23,484 nt of DNA from a bacterium (GCA_965233585.1 CBDDTI010000599.1:1-23484), one strand, 5' to 3'; positions 7,662-12,794 are shown, counted from the stretch's first letter. Numbers and translations are program-made. Notes: generated by a model not told the origin, from the letters alone.

Positions 7662-9214
7662 TGTTCAACGTTTTCTTCAAGCACACGTTCTTCGTCACAA
7701 ACATCTTGCTGTTCCTCTACACCTTCCTACTACCAAACTACTTGAAGCTGCACCTACATTGGCTCGTTTCTTGTTCAATCACAAGTGTCGTCCTGGCCTT
7801 CTTTGTGTTGACCTACCTGGTTCTGCGGCGTGCTCGTGTTTTCAGATTTGGCGCCGTCTTCGCTATGAGTGTCGCGGTCCATGTCCTCCTGATGGTCAAG
7901 TGTTTCACTTTCTGCTGCCTTGACTGACCTACGTTTGCCCAGCGACCTATCTATTTTTCAGAATGCCAATTTGCAGTCATCATATTTCAAACCCAGGGAT
8001 GCATTTTTTCGTGAGTTTCAATCTGAAATAGATCGGTGGAGTCGGTATCACGGAGATCCTGTGGAACCTGTGACCGCTCATCATTTTTTGCTTGATCAAT
8101 GGTCTCTACATGTGCGAGAATTGCGCCAAGTACCCAGGTTCACTGAATCCGACCTCCGAAGACTCGAAACTTCTTTTCCATCTCATGTCATTTTGCATCA
8201 TGCTGACCATGAAATTTATCAACTCACAATTTTTTGCCCACGGTTGTACAGTACAGGTGCAGCAAACACGTGGAATGACAATCAGTTGTTCTCGCGTTTT
8301 CCGGGAACTTTGGAAGAAGCTCAGGCAGAAGTGGCCATGGCCCTCTCTACTCGTTTGCAAACTAAGTACACTTGGGGCATCACCAAGCAACCTCGCTTAC
8401 CAAATGGGTTTTTTGTCTTCCTAAAACGGAAGAAACAATTTTTGAAAGGCCGCAGGTTGATTTCAAATTTTCGTGCCAAATTTGCCGTGCTGATGCCAAC
8501 AGCTGCGCGCATCATTGATTCTATGTGTGTACAGCTTTGGCCGCAATTCTTTGGCCAACTGTCTGTTCCGAATACTTAACGATTTCATGATCATTTTCAA
8601 ACTGTTGATGTTTCGGTTTCGTTTGGGATCATCAATGATGATTTGCTGTGGTTATCAACTCCATCCCACAAGAACGCCTGTTGGATGCGATTCAGTCGTT
8701 GGTCCTCGCGTGGAAGCAGACACATGGTGACATTCAACTGTCAGTGGATATGAGCAGGTCCTGACCCGTTCAGCATACAACGTTTGTTGGTCAGTTTCGT
8801 AAACGTGGTACATTTCGTACCATTGTGCCAAGTGGCTTAATTTACATTGTGGCTGCATCTCTTCGATCTCAGATTTTCTCAGTTGGGAATTTGATTTTCA
8901 AATAATTTCGAGGGGCAGGCATTGGTGCCCATATCTCCCCCCGTCCGGGTAATTTAGTTGTTACTATGGTGGAGGGAACATGGGCCTTTTCGTTTCAACA
9001 CGCCCTAGCTGCTTGACAGTTGTCATGTTTAGGCCTTCGGTATGTTGACAATCGTCTCATTTTATTTAATTCATTTCATTCCTCGAGCCCGTGTATTTCC
9101 TTCCTGGCTGATACACTTTTTATGGAGCCCCTGTGGAACTTGGGCCAGTTGAGAGTGGAGAATTTCTTGGCTTTGTCATTGACCACATTCGTCGCATCAT
9201 TTCTTACAAATTAA
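7594..9214 (+). pseudogene. CxC linker and reverse transcriptase fingers/palm of the PLE (frameshifts and stops)
   Basis: FNH...ACSC linker; HHADHE; FLKRKK...GRRLIS; motif A INDDL../NSIPQERLLDAI (8628-8690); motif B FK*FRGAGIGAHISP..GNLVV (8897-8963); motif C LRYVDNRL (YVDN 9041-9052); motif E EFLGF (~9160-9175). Confidence 0.9.
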
Positions 9215-9264
9215 TTCCCCAGAGCGCATGCGAAGGGTTCTTCGTAAAAAAGCAGCCGTTGTAA

Positions 9265-9985
9265 TACATCTTCACACTCTCACATCTGCTGATCTACATC
9301 TTCACACCCTCACATCTGCTGATCTACATCTTCACACCTTCACATTTGCTGCTCTACATCTTCACACCCTCACATCTGCTGATCTACATCTTCACACCCT
9401 CACATCTGCTGATCTACATCTTCACACCCTCACATCTGCTGATCTTCATCTTCACACCCTCACATCTGCAGATCTACATCTTCACACCTTCACATCTGCT
9501 GATCTACATCTTCACACCCTCACATCTGCTGATCTACATCTTCACACCTTCACATTTGCTGATCTACATCTTCACACCCTCACATCTGCTGATCTACATC
9601 TTCACACCCTCACATCTGCTGATCTACATCTTCACACCCTCACATCTGCTGATCTTCATCTTCACACCCTCACATCTGCAGATCTACATCTTCACACCTT
9701 CACATCTGCAGATCTACATCTTCACACCCTCACATCTGCAGATCCACATCTTCACACCCCCACATCTGCTGATCTACATCTTCACACCTTCACATCTGCT
9801 GATCTAAATCTTCACACCCTCACATCTGCAGATCTACATCTTCACACCTTCACATCTGCAGATCTACATCTTCACACCTTCACATCTGCTGATCTACATC
9901 TTCACAGCTTCACATCTGCAGATTTACATCTTCACACCCTCACATCTGCTGCTCTATTTCCTCGCACCTTCACATCTGCGGATCT
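9265..9985. repeat. 30-bp tandem array (~24 units, TACATCTTCACACCCTCACATCTGCTGATC)
   Basis: Directly visible near-perfect period of 30. Confidence 0.97.
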
Positions 9986-10044
9986 TCTCTCGCTCTTCTT
10001 TCTATCTCTCTGTTAAGGCGGGTGCGGTGCCGCCGGAGCGCCAC

Positions 10045-10530
10045 GAAACGCAACGTTTTCGCACGAAATGGACGTTGGACGTCCAAAGCCTACTAGGTAA
10101 AATTACGATTTGGAGGTGTCCGCCGCAACGTTTTCGCACGAAATGCACCTTGGACGTCAAAAACTTAGGTAAAATTGCGATTTTGAGGTATCCCTCGCAA
10201 CTCTTTCGCGCGAAATGGACGTTGGACGGCAAAAACTGACGTAAAATTGCGATTTTAGTTAGTCGGCCGGACCCTTTCGCACGAAATGGACGTTGGACGT
10301 CAAAAATTGCGCTAAAATTGCGATTTTGAGGTGTCCAACGCAACCCTTTCACACGAAATGGACATTGGACATCAAAAACTGACGTTAAATTAATTACGAT
10401 TTTGAGGTGTCAATCGCAACCCTTACGCGCAAAATGGACGTTGGACGTCAAAAACTGCGGTAAAATTGCGATTTCACGGGTCCGATCGCAACCCTTTCGC
10501 ACGAAATGGTAAAATTGCGATTTCACGGGT
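10045..10530. repeat. ~72-bp tandem array (~7 units, ...CCCTTTCGCACGAAATGGACGTTGGACGTCAAAAA...AAAATTGCGATTT)
   Basis: The GCACGAAATG-like anchor occurs at 10061, 10136, 10208, 10279, 10351, 10427 and 10499. Confidence 0.92.
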
Positions 10531-10534
10531 CTGG

Positions 10535-12315
10535 TCTCTGTGTGTGAAAGTGTTTGTTATAAAGGCTTCTTTCTGTGTCTGTGTGTAATGGCATCTGTGT
10601 GTAAAAGCCTATGTGTGTGAAGTGTGAAATGTCTAGTGTCTGTGTGTAAAACCTTCTGTGTGTAAAAGTCTCTGTGTCTGAAAGTGTTGGTGTGTAAAAA
10701 GCTTCTGTGTAAAAGCGTCTGTGTGTAAAAGCCTCTGTGTGTAAAAGTGTCTGTGTGTAAAAGCGTCTGTGTGTACAGGAGTCTCTGTGTAAAAGCTTCT
10801 GTGTGTAAAAGCGTCTGTGTGTGAAAGTGTTTGTGTGTAAAAGCGTCTGTGTGTAAAAGCGTCTGTGTGTAAAAGCGTCTGTGTGTAAAAGCGCCTGTGT
10901 GTAAAAGCGTCTGTGTAAAGGAGTCTGCGTGTAAAAGCTTCTGTGTGCAAAACTGTGCGTAAAAGCCTCTGTGTGTGAAAGTGTTTAAAAGCCTCTGTGT
11001 GTAAAAGCGTCTGTGTGTAAAGGAGTCTGTGTGTAAAAGCTTCTGTGTGTAAAAGCGTCTGTGTGTAAAAGCGTCTGCGTGTAAAAGCTTCTGTGTGTAA
11101 AAGCGTCTGTGTGTAAAAGCGTCTGTGTGTAAAATCGTCTGTGTGTAAAAGTCTCTGTGTGTAAAAGCCTCTGTGTGTGAAACTGTTTGTGTGTAAAAGC
11201 GTCTTTGTGTAAAAGCTTCTGTGTGTAAAAAAGCGTCTGTGTGTAAACGCTTCTGTGTGTAAAAGCGTCTGTGTGTAAAAGTGTCTGTGTGTAAAAGCTT
11301 CTGTGTGTAAAAGCGTTTGTGTGCAAAAGCGTCTGTGTGTAAAAGCGTCTGTGTGTAAATTCTTCTGTGTGTAAAAGCGTTTGTGTGTAAAAGTGTCTGT
11401 GTGTAAAAGCTTCTGTGTGTAAAAGCCTCTGTGTGTGAAAGTGTTTGTGTTTAAAAGCATCTGCGTGTAAAGGAGTCTGTGTGTAAAAGCTTCTGTGTGT
11501 AAAAGCGTCTGTGTAAGCGTTTGTGTGTAAAAGCCTCTGTCTGTGAAAGTGTGTGTGTGTAAAAGCTTCTGTGGGTAAAAGTGTCTGTGTGTCAAAGTGT
11601 CTTTGTGTAAAAGCTTCTGTGTGTAAAAGGGTCTGTGTGTAAAAGCGTCTGTGTGTAAAAGCGTCTGTGTGTAAAAGCGTCTGTGTGTAAAAGCGTCTGT
11701 GTGTAAAAGCGTCTGTGTGTAAAAGCGTCTGTGTGTAAAAGGGTCTGTGTGTAAAAGCGTCTGTGTGTAAAAGCGTCTGTGTGTAAAAGCGTCTGTGGGT
11801 AAAAGTCTCTGTGTGTGAAAGTGTTGGTGTGTAAAAGCTTCTATGTGTAAAAGCGTCTGTGTGTAAAAGCGTCTGCGTGTAAACGCTTCTGTGTGTAAAA
11901 AAGCGTCTGTGTGTAAACGCTTCTGTGTGTAAAAGCGTCTGCGTGTAAAAGCGTCTGTGTGTAAAAGTGTCTGTGTGTAAAAGTCCCTGTGTGTAAACAT
12001 GTCTGTGTGTAAAGCGTCTGTGTGTAAAAGCGTCTGTGTGTAAAAAAAGCGTCTGCGTGTAAACGCTTCTGTGTGTAAAAGCGTCTGTGTGTAAACGCTT
12101 CTGTGTGTAAAAGCGTCTGCGTGTAAAAGTGTCTGTGTGTAAAAGTGTCTGTGTGTAAAATTCCCTGTGTGTAAACGTGTCTGTGTGAAAGCTTCTGTGT
12201 GTAAAAGCATCTGTGTGTAAAAGCGTCTGTGTGTAAAAGCGTCTGTGTGTAAACGCTTCTGTGTGTAAACCCTTCTGTGCAAAAGCGTCTGTGTGTAAAA
12301 GTTTCTGTGTGTGAA
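10535..12315. repeat. 16-bp minisatellite (CTGTGTGTAAAAGCGT), ~110 units
   Basis: Directly visible. It is the source of the spurious 562-aa and 451-aa ORFs. Confidence 0.97.
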
Positions 12316-12471
12316 AAACAATACGAAGGATACGATGCAAACTAGTGTCTTGATTCTACTTGTCTCGACTGCCTATCATACATCTTTAATACATTGTCTT
12401 GTAATATCGTGTCTCAATACTAACAACAGAAGACTCTGCTCCTCTACGCTCTCGGGCCATCCGTCGTCTAG

Positions 12472-12794
12472 TTGAACCATGGCAAATTCGTGATGCATGT
12501 TCAGCTGGCAGTCTTCGTCTCCGTTTGCCGAGCCTCAAGTGGAGGGCCCACTTGATCAGACGCTATAGTTTTCCACGTACAGAAGTGTCTGGCAAGATAG
12601 ACGAACTTATTGCACTTTATCAAAGCAAAGGTTTCTCATACTACGATTGTTGCAGGGCCGTCAAGATAACGTGGGCGCTGTCCCTGTTTGTGTGCGCGTC
12701 AGCTCTGTACCAAAGAGTTTTAGCAATATATAGTTCAAAACGCAGGGGGCCATCCTTCTCATCATTGGTGGATGGCCAACGAAGAGGCCAATGA
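12472..12794 (+). pseudogene. PLE RT thumb / C-terminus (continuation after the family B insertion)
   Basis: EPWQIRDACSAGSLRLRLPSLKWRAHLIRRYSFP...LIALYQSKGFS is in frame with the FLG segment once the insert is removed. The R..R...L...G(Y/F) pattern is typical of PLE thumbs. Stop TGA at 12792-12794. Confidence 0.8.

Follow-up and report, generated by a model that had tools for sequence, protein, structure and literature searches.

Elements of the HLE2 group (Helitron2/Helentron) and their non-coding HINE derivatives have been described as inserting at T|T sites without target duplication, with a 3′ repeat that is set back from the end and followed by a stem-loop, and often with central tandem repeats (PMC3627910, PMC4067079, PMC11417382, PMC7492417; these and the other reports cited are drawn on in excerpt). 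Their inverted repeats are short (8-18 nt), the 5′ one lying 0-4 nt from the end. We analyzed a 23,484-nt stretch of DNA (GCA_965233585.1 CBDDTI010000599.1:1-23484, hereafter the window), which is labelled as bacterial but is taken here as DNA of a eukaryote of the coral holobiont, most likely the animal. In it, a block of tandem repeats at 9215..12471 on the plus strand (3257 nt, TTCCCC...CGTCTAG) interrupts a gene resembling a reverse transcriptase (RT). The inverted repeats, the T targets, the lack of a target duplication of 2 bp or more and the tandem cargo match the published descriptions, and on this basis we suggest that the block is very probably a whole non-autonomous rolling-circle-type element of the HLE2 group, of the HINE type. 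The class of element is known; the family is new within the sources searched and departs from the published rules at its 3′ end.

The coral family resembles Cg_HINE of the Pacific oyster (PMC7492417), to which it is likened by architecture only. Both are non-coding and have subterminal inverted repeats of 11-12 nt, a left flank that ends in a short-motif repeat, satellite-like central arrays (in the oyster sometimes two in a row) and mosaics of flank and array modules, and both occupy T-rich or TT targets without duplication, with empty sites that equal the joined flanks. Unlike the excerpted description of Cg_HINE, the coral family has three arrays (if the 8/30-bp array A is counted), a coral host, no palindrome after the 3′ repeat and no clear complement beside the 5′ subterminal repeat. 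With the HINE/DINE-1 elements of mites and insects (PMC4067079) it shares subterminal repeats 2-4 nt from the 5′ end, a TT target, the lack of target modification and a border T that belongs to the element, and some of those copies are half tandem repeat. In the excerpted families, however, a stretch of 38-60 nt separates the 3′ repeat from the end, and a palindrome of 5-10 bp follows the repeat, whereas in the coral family the distance is 15 nt and there is no palindrome, and those families are tied to Helentron partners at >95% identity, whereas the coral partner was not found.

Helitron2 (PMC3627910) and HLE2 (PMC11417382) are reported to have a T at the 5′ end, terminal inverted repeats that are asymmetric, 8-15 nt long and placed 0-2 nt from the 5′ end, and insertion after T runs without duplication; these traits also have their counterparts here. 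Helitron2 differs, as excerpted, in folding its 5′ repeat into a hairpin and in carrying another hairpin beyond the 3′ repeat, and neither is seen in the coral family. The Phytophthora proto-Helentron (PMC4067079, PMC11417382), to judge from its excerpted description, has the same 5′ TT and 3′ CTAG and the A|T insertion without duplication that can be read for the window copy; it differs in being a 14-kb coding element of an oomycete with a stem-loop at its 5′ end. The excerpt of the HELIANO report records no proto-Helentron-like element in 404 other genomes (PMC11417382). Ends of the TT/CTAG kind are otherwise thought to be closer to canonical Helitrons, and the TT...CTAG ends of the coral family may mix features of both known Helitron groups. 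Helitron-like repeats have also been reported at cnidarian subtelomeres (PMC11934779). By title and abstract, satellite-carrying coral HINEs were not found in the literature on Helentrons in corals or on Helitrons, satellites and Cnidaria, although Repbase or supplements may hold them. The initial annotation of the window, which spoke of an abundant "unknown" satellite, was overstated in this respect, as the architecture has been published for oysters and insects (PMC7492417, PMC4067079, in the passages cited).

The window copy gives a clean codon-level proof of the insertion mode for the Helitron2/Helentron-type class. The insert opens with TTCCCCAGAGCG and closes with CCGTCGTCTAG, and its ends are set by five other full copies together with the host frame. 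The RT-like frame is cut at 9214/12472: frame 1 reads ...GEFLGFVIDHIRRIISYKL up to 9213, and the downstream frame, EPWQIRDACSAGSLRLRL... (EPWQIRD...), begins at 12474, so that exactly two bases are needed between them. When the insert is removed, the remaining TT completes the codon ATT and the host reads ...SYKL-I-EPWQIRD. TT stands at 9215-9216 and again at 12472-12473, and the border may therefore slide by up to 2 nt, in agreement with the borders and the slide that had been annotated.

The host peptide read across the site was compared with relatives from public protein sets, because the assembly contains no second copy of the host region; a tblastn search of the assembly with host pieces returned only a 66-residue fragment at 3254-3442 and no paralogue of the site. 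The comparison with public relatives gave 87 high-scoring segment pairs (HSPs); 67 of them extend at least 12 residues past the junction in both directions, and 32 of these 67 are gapless there. Among the HSPs of at least 50% identity, 23 of 24 are gapless within 12 residues of the junction, and the gap of the remaining one lies 12 residues off, where the alignment ends. Among full-length relatives, P0003 has ...FKFPELSQIRD and P0005 has ...YSLPEPWQIRD at the site, and a short fragment of 74% identity reads SYKLIQPW. The empty site that had been rebuilt as AAA TTA A|TT GAA CCA TGG is thus upheld by the near HSPs, which run gapless across it, and close uninterrupted relatives, which could have spoken against it, carry neither an extra nor a missing residue at the site.

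The initial annotation had also taken the reading frame as proof that the insertion was free of duplication. The frame does give an exact junction, but it could not by itself exclude a duplication of TT; this is done by another copy of the family, on contig C581 of the same assembly. The C581 copy is inserted in a repeated sequence, and three paralogous empty sites (over 300 nt, 93% identical in two cases and 85% in the third) equal the joined flanks with no gap. With the element the sequence is ...TTTCTTT[TTCCCG...GTCTAG]TGCTAAA, and without it ...TTTCTTTTGCTAAA; since the 3′ flank opens with TG, the TT belongs to the unit and is not a duplication. For the C477 copy, a more diverged empty site on its own contig is of equal length at the join. 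In a comparison of the flanks of 16 copies with both ends (6 from the assembly and 10 from public loci), no match of 5 nt or more was seen, the matches of 1-4 nt were all T runs, and 5 of the 16 mismatch even at 1 nt. The C581 empty sites and this comparison exclude a target duplication of 2 bp or more, and the other insertions show constant ends and no consistent duplication. To this extent the annotated absence of a target-site duplication stands, but it falls short of strict proof, because a duplication of a single T would leave an identical sequence and, as the unit can always be taken as starting with T and followed by T, cannot be told from no duplication at the sequence level. TT...CTAG without duplication, T...CTAGT without duplication and T...CTAG with a 1-nt T duplication are equivalent descriptions, and HINEs show a like ambiguity of their borders (PMC4067079). 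The unit inserted in the window is exactly TT...CTAG (or T...CTAGT), in a T-containing site of the RT-like gene, with at most one T added.

That the satellite block is a mobile non-coding element, as had been proposed, is confirmed by the recurrence of the same ends on other contigs with unrelated flanks. In the assembly the 3′ end recurs 12 times, and in 6 cases the 5′ repeat is found 3.3 to 7.2 kb upstream, always with unrelated flanks, so that 3′ ends outnumber 5′ ends by 12 to 6. The exact pattern of the last 24 nt was found in at least 121 metagenome stretches and in 3 stretches of prokaryote-labelled genomes, which together make 124 distinct ends; as CTAG and most of the tail are fixed by the search pattern, their constancy in these ends is no evidence. 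Looser searches of the assembly (mismatches allowed, or BLAST) found CTAG at 9 of the 12 ends, the others being CTAA, TTAG and CGAG. The target-site check that had been recommended gave a clear preference: among the matches listed, all 123 ends that have enough flank show T directly after CTAG, 104 of the 123 show a second T behind it, and T enrichment persists for about ten positions beyond the 3′ end. On the other side, the unit starts with TT in 13 of the 16 copies with both ends, with TC in 2 and with CT in 1, and the preceding base is T in 11 copies, A in 4 and G in the remaining one. The annotated A|T site consequently holds for the window copy under one choice of border, but not for the family, in which T|T predominates. 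In one run of raw reads, those from other copies part from the window sequence at precisely 9215 for 380 out of 431 loose ends listed within 9213-9221, with a flank consensus ending in TTT, and the first 50 nt of the element are covered by about 400 reads against almost none on the host flank. Summed contig depths are thousands of times that of the host flank, which shows high abundance and not copy number.

Within the insert, 88% of which is tandem repeat, a left flank module, three arrays and a right flank module follow one another on the plus strand. The left module (9215..9264, 50 nt) consists of TT, the 5′ subterminal inverted repeat (9217-9227) and a small CGAAG/CTTCG hairpin; the 5′ module of the family opens with TTCCCGAGAGCG. 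Array A (9265..9985) was resolved by Tandem Repeats Finder (TRF), as were the other arrays, into 24 copies of a 30-bp unit with 92% matches and an 8-bp CATCTTCA-like motif at its base. A spacer of 63 nt separates it from array B (10049..10509; 72-bp unit, 6.3 copies), and array C (10638..12316) comprises about 106 copies of the 16-bp unit GTCTGTGTGTAAAAGC. The right module (12317..12471, 155 nt) carries the 3′ subterminal inverted repeat (12446-12456) and the conserved unpaired 15-nt tail CCATCCGTCGTCTAG at 12457-12471. The subterminal inverted repeat of the family is 11 nt long and is set in by 2 nt at the 5′ end and by 15 nt at the 3′ end. The asymmetric pair that had been noted in the window, CCCCAGAGCG at 9217-9226 against CGCTCTCGGG at 12447-12456, is present as described: 9 of the 10 positions pair, and the 3′ arm stops 15 nt short of the final base (12456 versus 12471). 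The mismatch at 9220 is private to the window copy: G occupies this position in the two nearest copies and in the majority of reads and contigs. Two private substitutions fall within the first 14 nt of the window copy. An Rfam search of 8500-13000 matched no family.

The order A-B-C is constant in all 6 full copies of the 12-Mb assembly, whose flanks differ, which indicates that the arrays belong to the element and move with it. Their lengths vary widely over these copies, from 5.3 to 24 units for B and from about 33 to 165 for C. There are 15 arrays of 16-bp units in the assembly, on 12 contigs; 7 of them are followed by the 15-nt tail within 1.5 kb, and 3 more lie inside mapped full copies. 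The left modules are of two kinds, each with a matching kind of array A, and the right modules are of at least two kinds. The left module of the window copy is 94-96% identical to those of the C548 and C652 copies, and its right module shows 88-91% identity over 126-129 nt to the C581, C315, C352 and C477 ends, 98% over 64 nt to that of C210 and 79% to that of the second copy in the window. Judged by these identities, the window copy, with the left module of C548/C652 and the right module of C581/C315/C477, is a mosaic of the kind described for the oyster elements. When its last 95 nt are compared with those of 134 other copies, identity reaches 80% or more in 82 and stays below 60% in 40, which share only about the terminal 35 nt. 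Array C is interrupted in the full copies of C548 (8510-15685), C652 (18505-22423) and C477 (5530-10015), in C548 by arrays of 302-bp, 85-bp and 64-bp units among others, and these interruptions are probably nested insertions. A match between the left flank and the reversed array B unit was rejected as a chance finding, as it was no better than in shuffles in 4 of 6 copies and marginal in the other 2 (10 and 25 of 300).

Several results weigh against the HLE2 assignment or against the exactness of the insertion. The published stem-loop after the 3′ repeat is missing: in the window copy the last 72 and 147 nt fold with z scores of −0.22 and +1.06, the consensus fold of 83 copies is a 3-bp stem only (CGG/CCG, −2 kcal/mol), and the last 60 nt of 40 copies have a median z of +0.5. 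The 3′ repeat, 15 nt from the end, is nearer to it than the 20-30 nt (Helitron2) and 38-60 nt (mite HINEs) given in the published excerpts. No 5′ hairpin engages the 5′ repeat; the CGAAG/CTTCG hairpin of 5-6 bp adjoins it without involving it and is no better than in shuffles (z −0.24). The interior was searched for a complement of the 15-nt tail or of the joined ends, and none was found in any of the 6 copies. In one of the 16 copies, the 1341-nt copy of locus L039, a 10-nt direct repeat (TATAATTGAT) stands on both sides, offset 2-4 nt from the ends, and this may be either a local target repeat or a long duplication as reported for some Chlamydomonas Helitron2 elements. Finally, 34 of the 43 host HSPs below 50% identity are gapped near the junction, mostly by one extra residue in the relative; since the shorter form is common to all near relatives, we take these gaps to reflect divergence between clades.

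To these must be added the search for a Rep-helicase partner, a recommended check that gave nothing, in a small search space. No Rep-helicase gene was found between family ends in the 12-Mb partial assembly and the metagenome loci, and tblastn with five coral-type Rep-helicase proteins against 575 kb of loci gave no match near family ends. Helitron_like_N had no match in the assembly, a weak result, since the control genomes also gave none, and PIF1 matched only on the 1.07-Mb bacterial contig. The sequence available upstream of the 124 metagenome ends was thin, with a median of 222 nt and at least 3 kb at only 11 of the ends; 22 open reading frames (ORFs) of at least 250 residues occur there, of which 8 survive a low-complexity filter. 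A scan of three distinct ORFs on the loci L129 and L131, with those inside the L039, L045 and L061 elements left out, gave a phage terminase only, and a further ORF beside family ends on L129 is an ankyrin protein. In the 7.2-kb copy of C548, only further arrays and no long non-repeat ORF were seen. Remnants of HLE2 genes do occur in the assembly. A match to DUF6570, the HLE2 marker in the HELIANO work (PMC11417382, as excerpted), is a remnant on contig C1 (7347-8438), and C542 (5094-8310) carries the C-terminal end of a Rep-helicase together with an Ssb-like_OB ORF; family ends were found on neither contig. Near-identical full-length proteins exist in public sets for both remnants, and the proteins 77-99% identical to the C1 remnant over the aligned parts carry DUF6570 and Helitron_like_N, with PIF1 in 2 of the 3 scanned. 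HLE2 enzymes thus exist in the source genome.

The missing hairpin and partner leave room for the hypothesis that the element belongs to another superfamily without visible duplication, for example as a Crypton-like element moved by a tyrosine recombinase at a shared T or TT, or by a transposase with a 1-nt T duplication, and that its likeness to Helitrons is convergent. A 1-nt T duplication or a crossover would indeed look the same as no duplication. However, the asymmetric 11-nt inverted repeats, the T-rich target, the CTAG terminus, the excess of 3′ ends and the satellite cargo jointly fit HLE2/HINE elements, and the HLE2 gene remnants in the assembly point the same way, so that we regard such an origin as unlikely. 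The CTAG terminus, found in the 124 metagenome ends (where the pattern fixes it) and in 9 of the 12 assembly ends, together with the possible A|T reading of the window copy, could instead suggest a derivative of canonical Helitrons (HLE1), which end in CTRR and insert between A and T. Yet 13 of 16 copies begin with TT instead of TC, 11 of the 16 have T before the unit, the hairpin expected before CTRR is absent, and the family has subterminal inverted repeats, which HLE1 lacks in the published excerpts; a canonical Helitron is therefore very unlikely. The idea that the block is a non-mobile satellite that expanded locally, with borders that look alike by chance, can draw only on the 88% share of tandem repeat, and it is refuted by six full copies with unrelated flanks, at least 121 further 3′ ends in metagenomes and exact empty sites. 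The non-autonomous HLE2 element of HINE type remains our preferred reading: it accords with the absence of a duplication of 2 bp or more, the T|T and T-rich target, the 11-nt asymmetric inverted repeats and the tandem arrays, and it is at odds with the lack of a 3′ stem-loop after the right repeat. The initial assignment to a Helitron2/Helentron-type element likewise agrees with the ends, targets and arrays, but not with the absence of the 3′ hairpin that characterizes both Helitron groups.

From what is known of Helitrons, an autonomous HLE2 Rep-helicase acting in trans would nick one strand at the 5′ T, and the helicase would then unwind in the 5′ to 3′ direction across the arrays and halt at the 15-nt tail with its CTAG end. 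The freed single strand would circularize and subsequently enter a T|T or A|T site. In such a circle ...CGTCTAG would directly adjoin TTCCCGAG..., and when the two ends are joined head to tail they form a stem of 11 bp whose 17-nt loop contains the joint. In the C581 copy this fold has a z score of −5.0, and none of 300 shuffles equals it; in the window copy, a point against the proposal, the private mismatch leaves it weak (z −1.7, equalled by 16 of 300 shuffles). We suggest that the two 11-nt repeats may pair in the single strand and hold the joined ends in the loop, as a stand-in for the missing 3′ hairpin; the position of the joint resembles that of the nick site within the stem-loop from which small circular Rep-encoding single-stranded DNA viruses replicate. 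The arrays would move with the element and change in length by slippage or unequal exchange, and recombination inside shared arrays would reshuffle the left and right modules.

The coral family and the several subfamilies that share only its last ~35 nt may, we speculate with considerable reserve, be a lineage of animal Helitron-like elements without a 3′ hairpin, in which pairing of the 11-nt repeats serves as the stop and rejoin signal. If this is true and a Rep-helicase is found, a hairpin would not be essential for end recognition in Helitron-like transposition. The hairpin-less CTAG terminus departs from the rules built into search programs, and those that demand a 3′ stem-loop would miss the family. 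Coral genomes, like those of oyster and fly, spread satellite-like arrays on rolling-circle-type elements, which bears on the annotation of coral repeats and on the origin of satellite DNA.

The host of the insertion (3335..13088, plus strand) is probably a decayed Penelope-like retroelement with a GIY-YIG-first (Naiad-like) layout; its reading frame shifts several times. It is bounded by a direct repeat of 405 nt (3335-3739 and 12685-13088, 95.6% identical) in the manner of a pseudo-long terminal repeat (pseudo-LTR). Naiad-type Penelope-like elements are described as having an N-terminal GIY-YIG, an RT with CxC and DKA motifs, pseudo-LTRs that arise from partial tandem copies and, in the excerpted account, no hammerhead, and they are known from the stony coral Acropora millepora among others (PMC8557442). 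In the host family, a GIY-YIG-like motif (GRFYIGST) precedes the RT-like part; RT-like motifs B (GAGIGAHISP), C (RYVDN) and E (FLGF) were read by eye, as were CSC/CCC and DKA motifs in P0001 and P0005. Pfam at default thresholds gave no match for host pieces and relatives, and a profile search of the host against solved structures gave none either. At E values up to 10, RVT_1 matched weakly in 3 of 7 host relatives (best E 2.2e-4). The language-model (Atlas) neighbours of the host have GIY-YIG and RVT_1 domains as well as two families that are frequent among Penelope-like proteins of animals, which serves as a lead only. Given these weak scores, it is reasonable to regard the host gene as a putative RT of a Penelope-like element of the Naiad type.

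In three runs, each belonging to a different study, the contigs all have the filled junction with 0-1 differences, and no contig of those runs stops at 9214-9216 from the host side, as an empty allele at the locus would require; the run used for raw reads has almost no depth on the host flank and is hence uninformative on an empty allele. Based on its private substitutions, the decayed host and the filled junction in three studies, the window copy appears to be old and to have become fixed here.

The window comprises contig C599 in full, one of the 747 contigs of a 12.0-Mb assembly that is rated a 92%-complete prokaryote. Open frames cover 0.37 of the window, whereas their share is 0.96 in a stretch of the assembly's 1.07-Mb contig. 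Tandem arrays abound in the window, and a 915-nt stretch of it is present in 20 public runs from 9 studies, 13 of the runs being labelled coral metagenome. The low open-frame coverage, the arrays and the coral-metagenome runs are the grounds for assigning it to a coral-associated eukaryote. Family members also occur in other assemblies labelled as bacterial. On L129/L130, a 5.3-Mb chromosome of a metagenome-assembled genome (MAG) labelled Ekhidna, they lie in a low-G+C stretch with an open-frame coverage of 0.47 and an adjoining ankyrin-repeat ORF; this looks like eukaryotic DNA joined into a bacterial assembly, and genuine transfer is improbable. The family members there, two or three short ones at 9400-11200 of L129, have CAT/CTT microsatellites as cargo. 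On L131, a contig of a MAG labelled Endozoicomonas, phage terminase/portal-like DNA in the stretch 4500-5339 abruptly meets the 3′ tail of the family at about 5017; the tail, CTAG and six bases are followed by a new 5′ end, the sole head-to-tail pair among the 124 ends. This contig is probably chimeric, and head-to-tail copies were accordingly rejected as a trait of the family (1 of 124). The bacterium-labelled assembly and at least two other public ones thus contain DNA of the host animal.

The window holds further repeats besides the insert. A second, older copy of the family (16739..18750, minus strand, upper bound approximate) comprises the right module, array C, array B and a remnant of array A, and its 5′ end is not recognizable. 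It has a perfect 15-nt tail and ends, as had been annotated, in CTAG (16739-16742) followed by TT (16737-16738). An array-C-like fragment of the 16-bp repeat with no recognizable end lies at 22318..22635 on the minus strand. The upstream copy of the host's direct repeat also holds the 66-residue fragment at 3254-3442, which resembles the host C-terminus. Beside the two direct repeats of the host are arrays with units of 15 bp (TTGTGTGTGAAAGAG) and 41 bp, at 2884-3341 and 13084-13535. A tandem repeat of 94-105 bp occupies 1-323, and its unit, reversed, is found directly before the 5′ end of other family copies in three raw reads.

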